A DNA stretch of 64,000 bases from Escherichia coli (GTDB lineage: Bacteria; Pseudomonadota; Gammaproteobacteria; Enterobacterales; Enterobacteriaceae): the NCBI RefSeq assembly GCF_044647545.1, contig NZ_CP172818.1. One strand, given 5' to 3'. The position numbers and the translations under genes are program-made. Each line of letters starts with the position of its first letter. The first letter of the stretch is position 1. This document shows positions 52,283-64,000 of this stretch, in pieces. The notes under the pieces are model-generated. The model made no database searches and was not told the DNA's origin. It saw only the letters and a program-made list of their open reading frames with translations.

Positions 52283-52533
52283 AACCGTTCCTTTGCAATA
52301 CCGCTATTTTCTTGCCATCAGATGTTTCGACTATAGGGAGCGCAGGAGAACGAATGAAATTACCAATTAGAATGAGTAGTTCCTTAACGGAATAACGATT
52401 TGGCAAAGCTAATGTCAAAAAGTGCTTAAGGCACCAGATTTCGGGCGTTTAGGAAGATTTGAAATTGTTTTAGCGCATCGGCAGTTTCATACTATGGCGG
52501 TAAAAAAATTTGCATGGTATTTAAGGACTCACT

Positions 52534-53571
52534 ATGTTTTCCGCATTGCGCCACCGTACCGCTGCCCTGGCGCTCGGCGTATGCTTTATTCTCCCCGTAC
52601 ACGCCTCGTCACCTAAACCTGGCGATTTTGCTAATACCCAGGCACGACATATTGCTACTTTCTTTCCGGGACGCATGACCGGAACTCCTGCAGAAATGTT
52701 ATCTGCCGATTATATTCGCCAACAGTTTCAGCAAATGGGTTATCGCAGTGATATTCGGACATTTAATAGTCGGTATATTTATACCGCCCGCGATAATCGC
52801 AAGAGCTGGCATAACGTGACGGGAAGTACGGTGATTGCCGCTCATGAAGGCAAAGCTCCGCAGCAGATTATCATTATGGCGCATCTGGATACTTACGCCC
52901 CGCTGAGCGATGCTGACGCCGATGCCAATCTCGGCGGGCTGACGTTACAAGGAATGGATGATAACGCCGCAGGTTTAGGTGTCATGCTGGAATTGGCAGA
53001 ACGCCTGAAAAATACGCCTACCGAGTATGGTATTCGATTTGTGGCGACCAGCGGCGAAGAGGAAGGGAAATTAGGCGCTGAGAATTTACTCAAGCGGATG
53101 AGTGACACCGAAAAGAAAAATACGCTGCTGGTGATTAATCTCGATAACTTAATTGTTGGCGATAAATTGTATTTCAACAGTGGTGTAAAAACCCCTGAAG
53201 CAGTAAGGAAATTAACGCGCGACAGGGCACTGGCAATTGCGCGTAGTCATGGAATTGCCGCAACGACCAATCCGGGTTTGAATAAAAATTATCCGAAGGG
53301 TACTGGCTGTTGTAATGACGCCGAAGTTTTCGACAAAGCCGGTATTGCGGTACTTTCGGTGGAGGCGACCAACTGGAATCTTGGAAATAAGGATGGTTAT
53401 CAGCAACGCTCAAAAACACCGGCCTTCCCGGCGGGAAATAGCTGGCATGATGTAAGGCTTGATAATCAACAGCATATTGATAAGGCGCTTCCTGGAAGAA
53501 TAGAACGTCGTTGCCGTGATGTTATGCGGATAATACTACCGCTGGTGAAGAAACTGGCGAAGGCGTCTTGA
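52534..53571 (+). CDS. iap: alkaline phosphatase isozyme conversion aminopeptidase (M28 family)
   Basis: 345 aa ORF with signal peptide and M28 peptidase metal-binding motifs. Confidence 0.9.
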   Translation: MFSALRHRTAALALGVCFILPVHASSPKPGDFANTQARHIATFFPGRMTGTPAEMLSADYIRQQFQQMGYRSDIRTFNSRYIYTARDNRKSWHNVTGSTVIAAHEGKAPQQIIIMAHLDTYAPLSDADADANLGGLTLQGMDDNAAGLGVMLELAERLKNTPTEYGIRFVATSGEEEGKLGAENLLKRMSDTEKKNTLLVINLDNLIVGDKLYFNSGVKTPEAVRKLTRDRALAIARSHGIAATTNPGLNKNYPKGTGCCNDAEVFDKAGIAVLSVEATNWNLGNKDGYQQRSKTPAFPAGNSWHDVRLDNQQHIDKALPGRIERRCRDVMRIILPLVKKLAKAS

Positions 53572-53652
53572 TGGGTTTGAAAATGGGAGCTGCGAGTTCT
53601 ACCGCAGGGGCGGGGAATTCTAAGTGATATCCATCATCGCATCCAGTGCGCC

Positions 53653-54418
53653 CGGTTTATCCCCGCTGGCGCGGGGAATCGCCGGAAAATATTCATGATG
53701 GGGGTGGTTATGGCGGTTTATCCCCGCTGGCGCGGGGAATCTCGGGGCCGCCGTGTTCACATTTGCCTAATTTCCCGGTTTATCCCCGCTGGCGCGGGGA
53801 ACTCTATCATAAACGAGGTGAATTTATGGAAACTGTACGGTTTATCCCCGCTGGCGCGGGGAACTCGTTAGTTTTCGAAAAAATTGTTTTCTTACGCTGG
53901 TTTATCCCCGCTGGCGCGGGGAACTCAATTATTGTCGTGGACAAATGCCGGTGTTATTGCGGTTTATCCCCGCTGGCGCGGGGAACTCATTCGAGACAAT
54001 CTCTCAAAATTAATGAAATCGGTTTATCCCCGCTGGCGCGGGGAACTCCAGGTATCAAGAAATAATCGAAGCCTTCATGACGGTTTATCCCCGCTGGCGC
54101 GGGGAACTCAATTGATTGCTGGGTGATATTGGAAAATGTTGCGGTTTATCCCCGCTGGCGCGGGGAACTCCTACCGTACAGATCCTGACCGGATATTATT
54201 TTTTTGCGGTTTATCCCCGCTGGCGCGGGGAACTCCGACGTTCGACGAAATGCGCGATGGCGGTCGGCGGTTTATCCCCGCTGGCGCGGGGAACTCTTCT
54301 GCGTCCCCGATGTCTGGCCCGACTGGTCCGGTTTATCCCCGCTGGCGCGGGGAACTCTATATGACCGGAACACTTCCGCCTGACGTTTGCGGTTTATCCC
54401 CGCTGGCGCGGGGAACTC
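53653..54418 (-). CRISPR. type I-E CRISPR array: 13 copies of 29-bp repeat (minus-strand GAGTTCCCCGCGCCAGCGGGGATAAACCG), 12 spacers
   Basis: repeat starts on + strand at 53653, 53714, 53776, 53838, 53898, 53960, 54020, 54081, 54142, 54207, 54268, 54329, 54390; distal repeats degenerate; spacers about 31-33 nt except one of 36 nt. Confidence 0.97.
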
Positions 54419-54523
54419 TCTAAAAGTATACATTTGTTCTTAAAGCATTTTTTCCCATAAAAACAACCCACCAACCTTAATGTAACATTTCCTTATTATT
54501 AAAGATCAGCTAATTCTTTGTTT
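54419..54523 (-). promoter_or_regulatory. AT-rich CRISPR leader between cas2 stop and first repeat
   Basis: 105 bp AT-rich tract adjacent to consensus repeats; the degenerate repeat is at the opposite end. Confidence 0.8.
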
Positions 54524-55727
<1,204 letters not shown>

Positions 55728-55742
55728 TTTATTACACCTAAA

Positions 55743-56342
55743 TCACAGTGGAGCCAAAGATAGCAAGCCACATCCCATCGATTTAGCTGGCCCAATACCT
55801 TGCTGTACAAGATCTATTAACGCTGGCGCGTCGTTGATGGTGATCACCCCTTCAAAGCAAACCGTTTGAATCTTTCCACTTTTACCATCACCAGAAAAAT
55901 ACTGTGGCCGTTCCGATATGGGATGCACATCTTCAACGCGCGCCGCATTGCCCAATTTACGTTGCAACCACGCGATTTGTTCTGCTTCTTTTATTAACGG
56001 AACCCGACAGCGTTTAATATTCCCTTTACTGTCCAGGCGCTTTTGATTGTCGAGAATAGTTTTGATCGGATTTGCCCGAAGCCGAAAATAGAGTGGAACA
56101 CCAACCTGAAGTTGAAATTCAACCTGTTTAGTTTTAATGACTGTCGCAACGGCAGTTGAAACAGGCATTTGCGCTGACTGCAATAAAACATGACAGCCTT
56201 CTGGTGTGTTTCGCTTCTCAACATGAAAAAGAAAATCACGAGCAGCATCCGGTCTGTTTGGAAATAAATGCCATAATCCCTGGTGAAGTTGGTAAAGATC
56301 CCTGCTCCAGGCCCTGGCAATGATGACTTTACTGAGATACAT
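55743..56342 (-). CDS. casE: Cascade pre-crRNA endoribonuclease CasE (Cas6e/Cse3)
   Basis: 199 aa ORF MYLSKVIIARAWSRDLYQLHQGLW. Confidence 0.93.
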   Translation of the reverse strand: MYLSKVIIARAWSRDLYQLHQGLWHLFPNRPDAARDFLFHVEKRNTPEGCHVLLQSAQMPVSTAVATVIKTKQVEFQLQVGVPLYFRLRANPIKTILDNQKRLDSKGNIKRCRVPLIKEAEQIAWLQRKLGNAARVEDVHPISERPQYFSGDGKSGKIQTVCFEGVITINDAPALIDLVQQGIGPAKSMGCGLLSLAPL

Positions 56343-57003
56343 CCATACCTCCTTTAATCACATACCATTCTCGGGAAGCAAATTGTCGAGGTAAGGTGAT
56401 CATCGGTTCGTCGCGCGCCGTAAATTTTAAATAATGCCCTGTAACTGATTCCTCACTATAAATATCGCCGCCAACGGGCTCATAATTTAATAGCGCCTTC
56501 TGAGGATCCGATGCCTTACATGTCCCCAAAAAAAGCGGGTGTGTTAGTGGGCAACTTCTCCGCCCCAGGTAGGGTGTATACCGAGGCTTTAATACTGCTT
56601 TTTCAAGTTCTGAGATAACCATCGTTGCATGGGGTGTTAACCAGAGAGCGACGGTAAAGGAGGCATCACATAAATATTCGCGCCATGTTTGAATCGTTTC
56701 ATGACTTTTCAAACCACGGTAATCTTCTCGCGCTCCAAGGACTGTATGGTAATCACGCAACCCCGTTACAGACACACGACGATCGTCAAGAATGAGTTCA
56801 TCGCAGCGCACTGCAAATTGCACACTCTCTGATAACGCCTGTAATGAAGAAGTATCATCACGTTGGATCCCAAGACAAGCACCGAGTAGCCCTAATAACC
56901 CGCTTCGGGTCGGAAATCTTCCGGTAGGTCGCGTTCCTTCAAAGGTCGGCTGCCCCCAGGCTTGCATTGGCCCAGCAAGCCGCAAGATCAAATAAGATCT
57001 CAT
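56329..57003 (-). CDS. casD: Cascade subunit CasD (Cas5e)
   Basis: ORF trimmed to MRSYLILRLAGPMQAWG; 224 aa. Confidence 0.92.
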   Translation of the reverse strand: MRSYLILRLAGPMQAWGQPTFEGTRPTGRFPTRSGLLGLLGACLGIQRDDTSSLQALSESVQFAVRCDELILDDRRVSVTGLRDYHTVLGAREDYRGLKSHETIQTWREYLCDASFTVALWLTPHATMVISELEKAVLKPRYTPYLGRRSCPLTHPLFLGTCKASDPQKALLNYEPVGGDIYSEESVTGHYLKFTARDEPMITLPRQFASREWYVIKGGMDVSQ

Positions 57004-57005
57004 GT

Positions 57006-58097
57006 TCACGCCTCGCCATTATTACGAACCCAGGATTTTAACTGTTCTAAAGTAGGCATTTGTTTAACTTGAGCAGTAATTGGGTCTACATCAGATAAGC
57101 TGAATTGCGCAGCAGCTCCGTTCAGACCATATCCATTGGCAACGCGATCCCAATATTGATTAAAAGCCTGTATAGACGGTTGCAAAAAGCCATCTTTCGC
57201 TTTAACCGCTTTTTCAAAAGCATTTGCCATAGAAAGTGGCATATCGGAGAAATTAACCATTACCATATCCGCAGGGTTAAAAGCGGCATAAGTACGCTGT
57301 TTTGCTCCAGGGACCTCTGTTGCCAGCATATGAACAACATGGGTTGCAATTTCCAGAGCCTGCTCCCTGGAGGCACCACCTAAATTTTCCTGAAGTTGAG
57401 CGAGGTTAATGTTGGCATAACGATAAAAAACACCCGATGAAAATTCCTGAGTTCCCAGATGTGCAGAACCTTGTTCCTGTAAATCATCTACAGCGGTGAA
57501 CCAGTCAATATCAGAATCAACCTGATGAGTAGTGATCGCATGCGCAATGGACATTGCACCATCAACTTTTCCCAACTCACTCATCATGCCGCTGGTTGCC
57601 ATTCTTCCACTAAGCGCAATATCAACACCCTGCTGTAAATTCACACGTATGGCGGCAATATCTTCCTTAAGAACTTTGAGCAGCTTTTTATCATCCAGAT
57701 TATCAGCCTCTGCTTTTGCAACCTGCTCACAGAACCAGGCTATTTCTCCCACAACCCAGGGAGTAACCGCATCGGCAGAAATCTTTTCGGCTTCATCAAC
57801 TAATTTACCGGAGAGCAGCGCTAATGTCTTATCGATGATTTTTTGGTCAAAACGTTCACCAAGTTTTTGCCGAAGAACATCACGTAATTGTGCAAGATGA
57901 ATTGTTCTGAGACTGGATTCACCAATATTTTGTGCGTAATAATCACTTTTACGCATCGCACGTTTAAGGCTTTGACTTGAAATTCTTACTCGTCTTTTCC
58001 CGCCGAAAATAGCGTCTTTCTGCATGTTCATATCGTCGCGGTTCAGACATGAAGGGCTGTGAGAAATCAGAACATGAATATTGATAAAGTTAGACAT
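57006..58097 (-). CDS. casC: Cascade backbone subunit CasC (Cas7e/Cse4)
   Basis: 363 aa [25 protein letters not shown]. Confidence 0.93.
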
Positions 58098-58109
58098 AGA
58101 AAGGTTTCC

Positions 58110-58592
58110 TTACGCATTTTTGTTTGTGGTCAATACAAAATCTTCCAGAAGTTGCTGGCGTTCGCGCTTTCCCCACCAGGTCAACATCCTGGCCATTAAT
58201 GGCCAGTCAAGTACGGGTTCGGCGTGAGTAAGTAATCGACGTAACTGGACCATATCGGCTGTTCTGTCAGCCCGAATTAATTGAAAGATACGGCGCTCGT
58301 TAATTCTTCCACTATTGGCTAAAGCTCTTCCCAACGAGATACCTGTTGTTTGCTCCGGTTTTTTGTCCTGATGTCGGATGACATTCTTTCCTGCGCTCAG
58401 GCAAAACACCATGCGCAAAAGAGCCTGCTGGTGACGTGGGTTTTCCCAACCAAAAGGTTGCACCAGCCTATAAAACGCAGGGATATCGCGTAATTCATCA
58501 GGTTCTGAAACACGTCTAATTTGCGCACATGCTCCATTATCCAGTTGTTGCCAGGCTCGATATAAAGCCATTGCATCAATTTCATCAGCCAT
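58110..58592 (-). CDS. casB: Cascade small subunit CasB (Cse2)
   Basis: 160 aa ORF MADEIDAMALYRAWQQL. Confidence 0.93.
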   Translation of the reverse strand: MADEIDAMALYRAWQQLDNGACAQIRRVSEPDELRDIPAFYRLVQPFGWENPRHQQALLRMVFCLSAGKNVIRHQDKKPEQTTGISLGRALANSGRINERRIFQLIRADRTADMVQLRRLLTHAEPVLDWPLMARMLTWWGKRERQQLLEDFVLTTNKNA

Positions 58593-60093
58593 TTGATGGC
58601 CCTCCTTGCGGTTTTAACTCCCGTAAATGTTTGTATAGCGTGGCGCGGGCAAGCGCTAATGTGCTTATTAATTTAGGATGATGTGCATAGGGAGCTTCAG
58701 ATTGATTAAATAGCATTTCACACAATTGATGAAGTTTGTCTCGTAAATCAGCTATTACCTCATCAGCTTGGGAAAAATTAATATTCGCCAGTACATCGGG
58801 AATTAATAATTCACTCTGTCGATAGAAATGCCTTTCTGCAGTCTCATGAACAGAGACTCCGGCCCCTTTGAAATCTTTATTTTTAAACCCTTCTGCAAAG
58901 GTATATAACGCCTTGCGTAAGGCTGTTTTATATCCCAAACCAACAGTCACTATTTCGTTTATCACATTGCCGTATTGTTGCCACCCCTGATTAAACATCA
59001 ACACATCATGACGCCGTTCAAGAATAGATGCTTGATTATTACGATATCCCCCCATAATCAATTCAAGAGGACTTTGCGGCGCAATATTTCTGAATTGATT
59101 CACAACCGCCGCCACGCGATTTCCATTTTCATTTTGAATAATCTTATCTACCACAACTCGGCTGATTTGTGTCCATGATGGTGCGGAGGTGGTGAAAGCA
59201 AGAAATTTTTCCTCAACCTCCCCTTTCTTGACTGTTACCAGACAAGGGGAATGCGGATGGGGCCATAGCCCATTAACTGTAAAGGTAAATTTTTCCTTAA
59301 GAAAACCGGTATAACGCAAATTGCTTTCCTGTCCACAGCAAGAACATTTACCAATCCCAATGGGATCGCATAATTCAATATGCGCTGGTTGCCAGAATAA
59401 GCCACGGACAAACCCAATTGACGAAGCTGGCACAGATTCATTGGGTTTGACAGGCTTAACCCAGGTAGGTTGGTTTTCCGTATGTAATTCATTGGGAAAT
59501 TGTTTTTGAAGACGAGGTATTGTGAGGACATTGAGTAATACCGTCGAGCGAAGATCGATCCCACATACGAAGGTGGTTATAGGTGTTCCTCCACGTAAAC
59601 CGCTTTTAAAGCCACCACCAAAACCAGGTGCCTGATTCGCCTGGTTGAATAACGCAATCGCAGTGCATCCACCACATAATGCTTCACCCTGCCCCGGTTG
59701 ATTGACAAATGCACAATTCGTCGCGCCGCTTACCCCAGCCAACAGTTTTTCCATTGGAGTCACATCATTTGCTTTGACACCTTTGGTCTGCATAAAGGGA
59801 TGTTCTGCGTGATTAAGGTAGAACATATCTATCCACGGCGCGATGAGTTGTTGAAACTCATCTTCAGTGAGCGGATTCATTATGCGATGTCGAAATTCAA
59901 CGTCATCTTTTGCCGGGGCGATAATTTGCCCAATGCAAACCAGCAGTGCTAAAGCGGCCAGTTCCATATCGTCACGGGGCAAACTTAATCGCCACTGATC
60001 TCTACTGCAGTATAGCGATTGCAGATTTATGATTTGGACTTCCCCCCCGTTTCGCGGGCGTACAGGGATCCAGTTATCAATAAGCAAATTCAT
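58585..60093 (-). CDS. casA: Cascade large subunit CasA (Cse1)
   Basis: 502 aa ORF MNLLIDNWIPVRPRNGGEVQIINLQSLY. Confidence 0.93.
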   Translation of the reverse strand: MNLLIDNWIPVRPRNGGEVQIINLQSLYCSRDQWRLSLPRDDMELAALALLVCIGQIIAPAKDDVEFRHRIMNPLTEDEFQQLIAPWIDMFYLNHAEHPFMQTKGVKANDVTPMEKLLAGVSGATNCAFVNQPGQGEALCGGCTAIALFNQANQAPGFGGGFKSGLRGGTPITTFVCGIDLRSTVLLNVLTIPRLQKQFPNELHTENQPTWVKPVKPNESVPASSIGFVRGLFWQPAHIELCDPIGIGKCSCCGQESNLRYTGFLKEKFTFTVNGLWPHPHSPCLVTVKKGEVEEKFLAFTTSAPSWTQISRVVVDKIIQNENGNRVAAVVNQFRNIAPQSPLELIMGGYRNNQASILERRHDVLMFNQGWQQYGNVINEIVTVGLGYKTALRKALYTFAEGFKNKDFKGAGVSVHETAERHFYRQSELLIPDVLANINFSQADEVIADLRDKLHQLCEMLFNQSEAPYAHHPKLISTLALARATLYKHLRELKPQGGPSNG

Positions 60094-60507
60094 TTGTTCT
60101 CCTTCATATGCTCCGACATTTCTCCTGCATTTCTATACGTCGGCACACTTCCGTTATCGGTAAAAACAAAGAAAAAATACGGCGTAATTAATTCAATAAT
60201 CACATTCACTGCAAAAATATATTCATTGGTTTAATACAATTAACCTATGCATATATTAAGATGTGTTGAATTGTTTAAAGACAATAATGCATGCATTTCA
60301 AATCTGCAAGTTATTCGTTTTATTATCAAAGAAATTTTTAGTTATAATAATTACCATAAATTTTATTACATAAAATATTCATACTGTGAATATAAAATCT
60401 CATACCGGGAAATTAAAAGAAGATGTACATTGTGCACCTTCCCTACTTAAGTAGGGATAAACCGTTATTGGTCTTGTTATCGTCATTGATACCAATCATT
60501 CCCGAAG
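60094..60507. promoter_or_regulatory. AT-rich casA-cas3 intergenic region; expected site of Pcas promoter and H-NS/LeuO control
   Basis: 414 bp, strongly AT-rich, upstream of casA; contains 16-bp perfect palindrome ccctacttaagtaggg at 60441..60456; regulatory roles are from established K-12 literature, not read from sequence. Confidence 0.6.
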
Positions 60508-63174
60508 TTATTTGGGATTTGCAGGGATGACTCTGGTCATCCCTTCATCCCGAGTGTAGGTAATAACAATATTATTACCCTGCCAGATCCATCCATCCTG
60601 ATTCTGTTTCCCTTCCAGCCAAAGTACCCCATCTTCATCTACTACTTCAGAAAAATTACGTTTCCAGGTGAAGGGTACATTGACGCGATTAAGTGCTAAC
60701 GCCTCATACTGCTGTTCATGACTTAGGTCCTCGTAGACCTGGCCATCGAGCAGTTGTTTACCTGAAGACGTTTGTAAATAAGGCAATAATGGCAGGCTCA
60801 TTTCCCCATCCCTCGTTACCGCAAGAATTGTTTCATCGTTATCCTGCAAGCTATATTCTTCAGCCCACTGCAGAACCTTGCGAGCCTTGAACCTCTTTTC
60901 ACACTCAGCACTTTCATACTTATCCATGCCTTTGATGACCCATTCTGGCTCATCCATTTCAGCATCATCGTAAATGCTATCCAGCCATTGCCGGTAGGCA
61001 TCAGGGAAAAATAAGGATGCTCCATTAAGTTCCTCAATATGTTGCTGCGTCCGCCACATGACTCTAACGTTGCTATAAATATGCTCATGTCGTCCGTAAC
61101 CTTCGCCATCAGGCAGCAAAACGCTGGCAAGAGGAACCTCAAAACCAGCGGGACGATATTTGCGATGATGGCGATGTAAACGGCCCAATCGTTGGAAAAG
61201 TAAATCTGCGGGGCAATGCTGAGTAATTAACCAATCAAAATCAACGTCGAGTGATTGTTCCACGACCTGGGTGGCGACAAGTATCCGTCCAACATTTCGC
61301 TTCCCATTTTTGCCGAAATTGCTAATAACTCGATTCTCTTTTTCACGACGATCGTTCAGCGTAAAGCGCGCATGAAACAAATCTATATCTACTTGCGTGT
61401 TATTTAGTTCCTTTAACCGTTGGTGGCATAGTTGTGCAACATCAACCAAATTGCAGATAAGACAGACTTGTGCACCCGCATTTGCCGCTACGATCATTCG
61501 CTCTAACATCCTAAGGTCAGGTAACATGTCAGCTAAATAAATAGGTTCTGGCCGAATCGAAAAGCGGGGCGGGAGTTGTTCTGAATGAGCTAACAGATCA
61601 AAACGTTGTGCACCATTCACACCTCGCCAGTTAATGAGTGGATATGCGGAGTTATTTTCCTCTGGATCTGTATGCAGACCATAAGTATCCAGAAGTTTCT
61701 GTTTTTGTTTCATTGGTAGAGTTGCGGAAAGAAGAATAACACTCCCCCCCACATCAGCCTGAGCCTTGAGCACAGCCTCCAGCAAGCCGTTCATATACGT
61801 GTCGTAAGCATGAACTTCATCAACAATTAAAACACTTCGACCAATTCCCAAACCACGGATAAAGCGGTGTTTAACTGGCAATACCGATATCAACACCTGA
61901 TCAATCGTGCAAACGCCGATTTGCCCAAGAAACACTTTCTTATTGCTTTGTGACAACCACTGACAACACTGAACCCATGCTTCTTCTTGCCCCTGCTCAG
62001 TAAATGCGCGTGATTTTATTGATTGAAAAAGGTGGTTAAAACGTGAATTACCATGAGCAAGAATAAGATTTGGGGAGGTAAATAAACGGCTCGCGTTCGC
62101 TTCCATTCTGCTGAGCATTGCATTTGCAGTAGCTTGTGTAGGGAGGGCAAAAATAACACTATCCGCAAGTTGTTGGTCAATAAGTTTCCAGGCATAGGCC
62201 AGCGCTGTTTCGGTTTTACCTGATCCCGTAGGTGCCTCAATCACCGTCAGCCCGGGAGCTGCAGGAAGAGCATCAACTAACACTTGTAATTGTCTGGGTT
62301 GATAGCCATTGTCCAGTAGAGCATGAACACCTTCATAACATCGCTTATTTGATACAAGGCCGCTCAACTCCAATACCCGGCTCGCATCCTGCTGTCGGTC
62401 CTGGAAATACGTTCTTAGAGCATTTATGTTGGAAGGTGCATCCTCTTTAAACAGAAAGGTATTCGTTGTAGTCCAGGAGCCTAACCAGTCAGCAAGCGAG
62501 CAAAAACCTGCTAACAGTGATGAACAATCAGGTGGTATATCGTTTATAGATAACCCGGCTGGCGTTAAAAATAATGCTTCGAGTACAGATATCCACTCCT
62601 CACGAGCCTGTTTATCTTGCGCAGCATAAGATGCCAGAGAAGCTGGCATTTCCCAACGCGACTTATCTTGATCCTGGGAATGTAATATAAAACCATGATG
62701 TCCTGTAACGGCCTCTACCCATGGAAACCAGGACTCATAAGGATGAGGAGCGGCATCAAAAAAACTGAAAAAATCCCCGGGAGATTGCTCTGAAAGTGAA
62801 TCCTGGTTAAACCAATACAGACCGGCTGCACCATGATTAAATTTACGGCACATTTGTGTTGATGGACCATTAAGTGATGGCGTTGCAGGATTTAATTTCA
62901 GCCAACTTTCTGCTGATTTATATTGGAATCGTATATCAAACTTTCCGATATCATGAAGGGCAATGAAAAATAACAGCCAGGCTTTCACCATCTGTTTTGA
63001 TAGCATTTCATTTTGGCAAAAAGCATTTTGTAGTACGACTGATTGTTCCCACCAGCAATCTGCAACAGCTGCAACATCCAGGCAATGATAAATCAACAGA
63101 TGAATATCATTTCCTTTCGTCAGGCTTTTTGAGGATTTCCCCCAGTAATGACATATATATTTAAAAGGTTCCAT
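60508..63174 (-). CDS. cas3: CRISPR-associated nuclease/helicase Cas3
   Basis: 888 aa ORF with N-terminal HD nuclease motif (ALHDIGKFD) and SF2 helicase Walker A (APTGSGKTE) and DEVH box (LIVDEVHAYD). Confidence 0.95.
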   Translation of the reverse strand: MEPFKYICHYWGKSSKSLTKGNDIHLLIYHCLDVAAVADCWWEQSVVLQNAFCQNEMLSKQMVKAWLLFFIALHDIGKFDIRFQYKSAESWLKLNPATPSLNGPSTQMCRKFNHGAAGLYWFNQDSLSEQSPGDFFSFFDAAPHPYESWFPWVEAVTGHHGFILHSQDQDKSRWEMPASLASYAAQDKQAREEWISVLEALFLTPAGLSINDIPPDCSSLLAGFCSLADWLGSWTTTNTFLFKEDAPSNINALRTYFQDRQQDASRVLELSGLVSNKRCYEGVHALLDNGYQPRQLQVLVDALPAAPGLTVIEAPTGSGKTETALAYAWKLIDQQLADSVIFALPTQATANAMLSRMEANASRLFTSPNLILAHGNSRFNHLFQSIKSRAFTEQGQEEAWVQCCQWLSQSNKKVFLGQIGVCTIDQVLISVLPVKHRFIRGLGIGRSVLIVDEVHAYDTYMNGLLEAVLKAQADVGGSVILLSATLPMKQKQKLLDTYGLHTDPEENNSAYPLINWRGVNGAQRFDLLAHSEQLPPRFSIRPEPIYLADMLPDLRMLERMIVAANAGAQVCLICNLVDVAQLCHQRLKELNNTQVDIDLFHARFTLNDRREKENRVISNFGKNGKRNVGRILVATQVVEQSLDVDFDWLITQHCPADLLFQRLGRLHRHHRKYRPAGFEVPLASVLLPDGEGYGRHEHIYSNVRVMWRTQQHIEELNGASLFFPDAYRQWLDSIYDDAEMDEPEWVIKGMDKYESAECEKRFKARKVLQWAEEYSLQDNDETILAVTRDGEMSLPLLPYLQTSSGKQLLDGQVYEDLSHEQQYEALALNRVNVPFTWKRNFSEVVDEDGVLWLEGKQNQDGWIWQGNNIVITYTRDEGMTRVIPANPK

Positions 63175-63532
63175 TAATAGCCTCCCTGTTTTTTTAGTAT
63201 TATCGATGATATCAGTGGACTATTTTTCGATGCTGCTCATAAATATCGAATTACAGTGATATACACATGTCTTGCCTCCCTGCAAAGAAGAGACTAACAT
63301 CCGAATTGCTTAGGTTCGAACGCTGGCCTCAGGTTGATAGAAATATCGCCTGGGGCTTTTGTCCATCTGGTACCTCGCGAATGCTTAATGCCAGACAGCC
63401 TCAAGCACCCAACGCCATTCTATACCTGTTAATTCTTCCAACGACGTTCACGTTTAAAATCAGGAATGCTGCTCGCAAAATAAAAACGCCCCCATCATTT
63501 CTGACAGAGGCGTTTAATTTATCCGGCAATAT

Positions 63533-64000
63533 TTACCCTTCGTGTAATCCACATTCCCTTTTTAAGCCAAAGAAACGCGTTTCTTCTTCCGCCATGCCGG
63601 GTTCCCATTTACGGGTTGTATGGGTATCGCCCACCGATAAATATCCTTCGTCCCATAATGGGTGATATTTCAGGCCATGTTTTTGCAGGTACTGATATAT
63701 CGTTCGGTTATTCCAGTCGATAATCGGCAGCACTTTAAATACGCCACGCTGAATTGCCAGCACCGGTAAATTGGCGCGGCTGCCGGATTGTTCACGGCGC
63801 AGGCCAGCAAACCACGTTTGCGCATTCAGTTCTTTCAGCGCCCGGTTCATCGGTTCGACTTTGTTGATGTCATTGTACTTTTCAATGCCTTCAACGCCCT
63901 GCTCCCACAGTTTGCCGTAGCGTGCTTCCTGCCAGGCGGCGCTTTCAGTAGCACGGTACACTTTCAGGTTGAGCTTGAGTTTGTCCGTTAACTCGTCAAT
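63533..64000 (-). CDS. cysH: phosphoadenosine phosphosulfate reductase, C-terminal part (N-terminus lies beyond window end)
   Basis: ORF 63533..63961 and upstream in-frame sequence match CysH C-terminus (...ECGLHEG); truncated by window edge. Confidence 0.9.

Follow-up and report, generated by a model that had tools for sequence, protein, structure and literature searches.

Sok RNAs of hok/sok type I toxin–antitoxin loci pair with the leader of the hok mRNA, block its translation, and mark the duplex for RNase III. Full-length hok mRNA is itself kept inert by tac–fbi closure. The hok/sok locus of plasmid R1 resembles the locus described here in the architecture of its leader and Sok RNA. The hokB/sokB, hokC/sokC, and hokE/sokE loci of Escherichia coli K-12 are matched by the same leader covariance model (84–118 bits), and they have in common with our locus the tail, hairpin, and U-tract of Sok, a sok −35 element lying over the hok Shine–Dalgarno (SD) sequence, and a TAnnAT −10 element at a constant distance from GGGTGC. 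These paralogues share just 41–46 of ~59 Sok positions with SokX, however, and they keep the toxin open reading frame (ORF), with IS elements flanking or splitting several of the loci.

Closer still are the hok/sok loci adjacent to cysH. As reported by Almendros et al. (2014, PMC3903273), hok/sok is found in every strain other than carriers of cas-E2, and specific intergenic segments accompany each cas variant. A 2025 survey (PMC12736100) found that ~90% of uropathogenic strains have both hok and sokX adjoining cysH, and that the rest have sokX only, like K-12. Because these two papers report cas-E2 or K-12-like strains that lack hok and have sokX, the arrangement analyzed below was already known: the remnant is real, explained, and ordinary, and of the K-12 type described previously. 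Added here are its anatomy at the level of single bases, the precise position of the break, the strand in which the corresponding Rfam model is written, and a test that speaks against the hok promoter being the cas3 promoter.

The window, that is, the whole stretch of E. coli DNA analyzed, is 64,000 nucleotides in length. The noncoding gap of interest spans 358 bp (63175–63532), exactly as delimited in the first-pass annotation, and lies between the cas3 ATG (63174) and the cysH stop codon (63533). The gene ends on either side had been called divergent; instead, both genes are on the minus strand in tandem, with the stop of cysH at one edge of the gap and the start of cas3 at the other. The 3′ part of cysH (PAPS reductase, 63533–64000, minus strand) is located upstream of the interval and runs off the window end, while cas3 (60508–63174, minus strand), a K-12-type ‘E2’ variant of 888 amino acids, is located downstream, as assigned from the ORF list and RefSeq annotation. 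In FDAARGOS_497, which is 100% identical to the window, RefSeq annotates cas3 and cysH and nothing between them. The locus tags of NZ_CP033850.1, identical to the window, skip from EGY17_RS03000 (cas3) to RS03010 (cysH), PGAP having called no sokX. Unlike this PGAP annotation, the curated record of K-12 includes sokX.

K-12 MG1655 has the same locus, the same 358-bp spacer, and the same breakpoint as the window. As the spacer is of equal length in the two and has no indels, a K-12 coordinate equals the window coordinate plus 2824045. By this offset, MG1655 sokX (b4701; 2887353–2887411, plus strand), which the first-pass annotation had placed in this interval, maps to 63308–63366 on the plus strand of the window. 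The intergenic regions are 96.4% identical, with 13 substitutions, two of which are in the SokX 5′ tail (63309 and 63312) and one right after the sokX −10 element (63301). It is from K-12 that all the expression evidence discussed below is drawn. We assign a probability of roughly 90% to the interval being composed of the cysH terminator, the 5′ half of a hok/sok locus, and the promoter and 5′ UTR of cas3.

An Rfam scan of window positions 60000–64000 yielded a match to RF01794 (‘sok’) running from 63410 to 63254 on the minus strand. The match covers the entire model (1–157 of 157) and scores 102.6 bits against a gathering threshold of 59 (E = 2.3e-23), far above chance. The truncated K-12 orthologue and the intact O157 locus have similar scores (103.7 and 105.3 bits, respectively). 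A hok/sok-type remnant had been suspected in the first-pass annotation, and this is confirmed both by the match and by the orthologous locus in most E. coli, which is an intact Hok/Gef gene adjoining cysH. The same annotation would have abandoned the remnant if the interval had neither a covariance-model match nor transcription; both were found, the latter in K-12 as a Term-seq 3′ end inside sokX.

RF01794 is named ‘sok antitoxin’, is 157 nt in length, and ends at the hok start, whereas annotated Sok RNAs are ~59 nt. In every case the match is on the hok strand: hokC is on the minus strand and sokC on the plus, hokB on the minus and sokB on the plus, hokE on the plus and sokE on the minus, and K-12 sokX is on the plus strand with its match on the minus. 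The model also matches the hok strand of O157 hokX. Since RF01794 always lies opposite the annotated Sok RNAs, it describes the hok mRNA leader, the target of Sok, and SokX is its complement. This creates an annotation trap: with the ‘sok’ model in the hok mRNA sense, Rfam-driven annotation puts ‘sok’ on the wrong strand and makes it nearly three times too long. A study of EHEC that gives ‘sok_15/sokX’ as 152 nt is an example of such mislabeling.

The remnant of the hok mRNA 5′ leader extends from 63410 to 63266 on the minus strand (the Rfam alignment continues to 63254) and is 96% identical to intact leaders. It retains the ‘tac’ sequence at its 5′ end (GGGUGCUUGAGGC), the region targeted by Sok, the start of a mok-like upstream ORF (63300), and, for hok, the SD (GGGAGG) and ATG (63268–63266). 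The predicted fold of the leader in the window is not unusual (z −1.8) and has no partner for 5′–3′ closing. The mok-like frame beginning at the ATG at 63300 (63220–63300, minus strand) is 26 codons long in the window, encodes MLVSSLQGGKTCVYHCNSIFMSSIEK, and extends into cassette sequence to a stop within the cas3 promoter's CRP site; in O157 and CFT073 this frame has 12 codons and stops 2 nt past the hok ATG.

A putative hok promoter −10 element, TAGAAT (63417–63422, minus strand), is located 6 nt upstream of the leader start. When four hokX alleles are aligned with hokC, hokB, and hokE, the TAnnAT motif is invariant and at a fixed distance from an invariant GGGTGC. The −35 region (~63440–63445) is poor and variable. 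The hok promoter may be active in its truncated context, as judged from these conserved elements. A scan for consensus promoters returned a sole match, TTAATA/TATTAT on the plus strand at 63174–63203, against 1.8 expected from shuffled sequences; as this is fewer than the shuffles average, the match was dismissed as a promoter. The scan missed the hok and sokX promoters because their hexamers are nonconsensus, the hok promoter having a weak −35. The terminator scan detected no terminator-like site between 63410 and the cas3 ATG.

Intact cysH-adjacent hok/sok loci occur in E. coli that have cas-E1 or no cas genes (O157:H7 and CFT073; WP_000956458.1), and alignment of these with the window places the breakpoint between 63265 and 63266. 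From cysH onward, across the terminator, promoter region, and leader and as far as ...GGGAGGCAAGACATG, identity is ~96%; none is seen beyond. The hok start codon is the last homologous triplet, with identity to O157 and CFT073 stopping after ...GGCAAGACATG. On the other side, the iap-side flank of CFT073 matches window 52445–53582, and homology restarts at 63266. Hence the K-12-type cas-E2/CRISPR cassette spans 53583–63265, and ~9.7 kb of cas genes and CRISPR stand in place of 263 bp of the ancestral arrangement, namely the Hok coding sequence and 3′ UTR. The type I-E CRISPR array is located at 53653–54418 (minus strand) and has 13 repeats of GAGTTCCCCGCGCCAGCGGGGATAAACCG, the two at the low-coordinate end being degenerate with three mismatches each. 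It was found by a pattern search, and Tandem Repeats Finder was blank at 52–56 kb.

The window lacks the coding sequence, 3′ UTR, fold-back element, and terminator of hok. The locus of O157:H7 and CFT073 goes on with an intact ORF that adjoins cysH and encodes a 50-amino acid Hok/Gef protein (PF01848, 39.1 bits), and with a mok-like upstream ORF of 12 codons; the window has neither. Past the leader in the window are just the hok ATG and four unrelated codons, forming a relic ORF in which the start codon is fused to cassette sequence (ATG TGT ATA TCA CTG TAA, encoding MCISL; 63251–63268, minus strand). That no Hok-like peptide could be recognized by eye in the first-pass annotation holds up, as tblastn with HokX identified no Hok-like coding sequence in the whole 64 kb (best E = 0.25), and neither PF01848 nor any other Pfam family matched the four small ORFs of the intergenic region. 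A displaced 3′ piece of hok beyond the cas/CRISPR cassette was also considered, and none was detected in the window by blastn with the CFT073 and O157 loci or by tblastn with HokX.

Also present in the intact loci are a hairpin in the 3′ UTR and a fold-back element that pairs with the 5′ end. For the intact hok mRNA of O157 (359 nt), 5′-to-3′ closure is predicted (−137.8 kcal/mol, z −5.3), with 5′ GGGUGC..GAGGCU pairing with 3′ GGUCUCC..GCACCC. In contrast, long-range tac–fbi pairing is absent from the window, where the 3′ UTR is deleted and the leader has no counterpart.

SokX (63308–63366, plus strand) is composed of a variable 5′ tail (63308–63324), a conserved hairpin (63325–63356), and a U-tract. 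The predicted fold has the tail single stranded, followed by the long hairpin and U-tract (−22.7 kcal/mol, z −3.6), and the hairpin is the consensus hairpin common to SokB, SokC, and SokE. The putative sokX promoter (63272–63300, plus strand), read from the sequence, has a −35 element TTGCCT (63272–63277), a 17-nt spacer, and a −10 element TAACAT (63295–63300), with the annotated start of sokX (63308) 8 nt past the −10. The −35 element overlaps the hok SD and sits just 6 nt from the breakpoint. Its TTG is invariant in all paralogues, and the promoter shows no polymorphism in six alleles. This invariance, the position of the start, and SokX expression in K-12 argue for a functional promoter. 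The K-12 and window SokX sequences are identical at 57 of 59 nt, with the promoter hexamers, hairpin, and U-tract all unchanged. Polymorphism in the locus is densest in the 5′ tail, the part that recognizes the target, where 8 of 17 nt (63309–63325) vary among six alleles.

Expression of SokX in K-12 is documented by several approaches. Three listings in the Term-seq data of Adams et al. (2021, supplementary file 1) give a plus-strand 3′ end at 2887407; this corresponds to window 63362, which is inside sokX and directly past GGGGCUUUUGU. An RNA-seq survey of K-12 saw SokX under all conditions, and SokX shows up as a structured-RNA signal in Ribo-seq. SokX is thus like other Sok RNAs in being a cis-antisense RNA with a promoter and terminator of its own that overlaps the hok leader.

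The remaining 91 bp of the interval (63175–63265, minus strand) form a cas-E2-specific segment upstream of cas3 that is unrelated to hok and absent from O157 and CFT073. This segment contains a −10 element GATAAT (63204–63199), the cas3 transcription start site (TSS; 63195), an SD sequence GGGAGG (63186–63181), and a CRP footprint (~63212–63240), all on the minus strand. The TSS was mapped from K-12 SMRT-Cappable-seq (2887240), in which it is the sole one listed for cas3 (b2761). The footprint was mapped by DNase I in K-12 MG1655, in which it covers −38 to −66 from the cas3 ATG and has the sequence ATGAGCAG-N7-AAATAGCCCGCTG (PMC7019758). Since the TSS and the CRP footprint are both within the cassette segment, cas3 possesses a promoter of its own past the breakpoint, and the hok promoter was rejected as the main cas3 promoter. 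Input from the hok promoter to cas3 does not appear in the SMRT-Cappable-seq data, a method that short or rare transcripts would escape. The Cappable-seq supplement has no entries across the range, and the K-12 Term-seq tables have no minus-strand 3′ ends in 28872xx–28875xx. Within the CRP footprint, the window has AAATAGTCCACTG in place of the AAATAGCCCGCTG of K-12, B2C, and a metagenome-assembled (MAG) contig, owing to substitutions at 63216 and 63219. It might be that cas-E2 sub-lineages differ in CRP control of cas3.

At the opposite end of the interval is the predicted intrinsic terminator of the cysJIH operon (stem-loop 63484–63515, U-tract to ~63477, minus strand), identified by a terminator scan and by its fold. 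The minus-strand sequence is AAACGCCTCTGTCAGAAATGATGGGGGCGTTT TTATTTTGCG, which forms a stem of 14 pairs (6 G-C) with a loop of 4, followed immediately by the U-tract TTATTTTGCG. It folds with −23.1 kcal/mol (z −5.1), and 0 of 200 shuffled sequences fold as well. The first-pass annotation had proposed a cysH terminator hairpin at ~63481–63515, which agrees to within 3 nt with the stem found here (63515 to 63484); the hairpin and U-tract begin 17 nt past the cysH stop codon on the same strand and are of textbook form. Consistent with this, K-12 SMRT-Cappable-seq lists cysJIH as an operon without cas3. The K-12 Term-seq tables have no minus-strand 3′ end at this terminator, and cysJIH was possibly poorly expressed in the media used. 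Two sub-threshold Rfam matches over 63475–63575, to ctRNA_p42d (24.9 bits against a gathering score of 50) and Spot_42 (19.7 bits against one of 80), reflect a generic terminator hairpin and were set aside.

The truncated arrangement is present in ~21% of complete E. coli genomes (1100–1175 of 5426). Megablast with window 63100–63600 matched 5425 of the 5426 genomes, with 1100 covering at least 80% of the query. The remaining matches start only at window 63266, and a ‘Hok/Gef family protein’ is annotated there beside cysH. With a junction-spanning query (63150–63300), 1175 genomes spanned the junction, and all 23 sampled rows among the partial matches began exactly at 63266. The window also matches the sequence of primer cas3E2-R of Almendros et al. 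(2014, PMC3903273). A contig search with a cassette-specific 28-mer returned one contig, JAEWTL010000007.1 (3294 bp), labeled ‘MAG: Bacillota bacterium’, which is 96.3% identical to and colinear with window 60194–63452 (cas3 with the hok leader in its truncated form). Its true source is almost certainly Escherichia, by mis-binning or contamination; being E. coli-like, it is uninformative as a donor arrangement from another species.

Between the window and K-12, divergence amounts to 4.1% for cas3, 2.2% for the 91-bp segment, 3.45% for the leader, 7.8% for the hok promoter region, and 2.6% for cysH. The divergence in cas3 suggests that the two represent separate cas-E2 sub-lineages, and as the junction is identical despite this divergence, the truncation predates the split of the sub-lineages. 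Six alleles (four truncated and two intact) show no variation in the −35 and −10 elements of sokX, in the hairpin and U-tract of its RNA, or in the −10, SD, and ATG of hok; polymorphic sites concentrate in the SokX 5′ tail and in the stretch upstream of the hok −10. Several variants common to truncated and intact alleles suggest recombination. The invariant elements and shared junction are compatible with some constraint and equally with short divergence or recombination, six alleles being too few to distinguish these.

Inactivation of hok loci by IS elements is seen independently in other strains and at other loci. In strain E2, a partial IS-type gene (integrase core domain) lies between the hok coding sequence and the sok/cysH side, and in strain PSJ-42, IS1 accompanies a deletion of the leader and sok at the cysH locus. 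In K-12, IS186 abuts hokC and hokE, and IS150 splits hokA/sokA.

We propose that the ancestral state was a complete hok/sok type I toxin–antitoxin locus (‘hokX/sokX’), as in most E. coli, and that the cas-E2/CRISPR cassette took the place of all that lay 3′ of the hok ATG. Retained are the putative weak hok promoter, the leader up to the hok ATG, and the convergent sokX with its promoter and terminator (63272–63362, plus strand). With the Hok coding sequence gone, no toxin can be made. The sole perfect target of SokX would be a leader transcript coding for a peptide of at most five residues. Following the hok/sok paradigm, this leader, devoid of fbi, may stay permanently open to SokX binding and to cleavage by RNase III. 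For its transcription, cas3 has a CRP-dependent promoter of its own that lies past the breakpoint. As no toxin is made and SokX is nonetheless transcribed and terminated in K-12, the likeliest status of SokX is that of an orphan antitoxin RNA. The remnant as a whole most likely has no role beyond this orphan RNA and a dead leader, absence of a selected function being the default reading.

Two other explanations would give the remnant a role, and we regard each as very improbable. In one, it has been co-opted for control of cas3, such that transcripts starting at the hok promoter (~63410) read through or interfere with the CRP-dependent cas3 promoter, and SokX, through its complementarity to the leader, sets the fate of a long-leader cas3 mRNA by way of RNase III or occlusion of the relic SD. 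The intact hok −10 and leader are in keeping with this, as are the lack of a terminator-like site between 63410 and the cas3 ATG, the sparing of the complete sokX promoter by just 6 nt at the breakpoint, and the maintenance of the junction across cas-E2 sub-lineages; regulators of cas3 transcription had also long escaped identification, and immunity is limited by cas3 (PMC4782391). However, the single cas3 TSS in K-12 is 215 nt downstream of the predicted hok start, minus-strand Term-seq 3′ ends are absent from 28872xx–28875xx, and CRP-dependent activity maps to the 91-bp cassette segment. The hok −35 is poor, and hok promoters are weak by design, which also counts against co-option. That the hok promoter and leader together with SokX constitute a second, antisense-controlled input to cas3 in cas-E2 strains is no better than a long shot.

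The other explanation, which we hold to be just as improbable, is that SokX is kept as an ‘anti-addiction’ or cross-protecting antitoxin acting in trans, which damps the hokB and hokE mRNAs or re-acquired hokX alleles. SokX is expressed though its toxin is lost, and its nearest relative is SokB (46 of 59 identical columns), whose tail GCUAGGUUC is resembled by the window 5′ tail GCUUAGGUUC. Moreover, the duplexes predicted for SokX with the hokB and hokE leaders have energies of −68 to −79 kcal/mol, as compared to −53 to −61 kcal/mol for other noncognate pairs, these energies ignoring intramolecular structure. Cognate duplexes, though, reach ~−120 kcal/mol, and most of the cross-pairing energy comes from the conserved hairpin rather than the recognition tail, which is the most polymorphic part of SokX. 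Over-expression of SokX was also without phenotype in a screen of biofilm, motility, and fimbriae (PMC4606813). An orphan SokX RNA facing a dead leader thus remains the reading we prefer.

If the hok leader and SokX did provide an input to cas3, a type I antitoxin RNA would be linked to the level of the CRISPR interference nuclease, and this would bear on why Cas3 limits CRISPR immunity in K-12-type strains. On the preferred reading, the value of the analysis is mostly one of housekeeping: the 358-bp ‘noncoding’ gap is fully accounted for, and the locus is another case in which a chromosomal hok locus has been disarmed and its antitoxin RNA survives.
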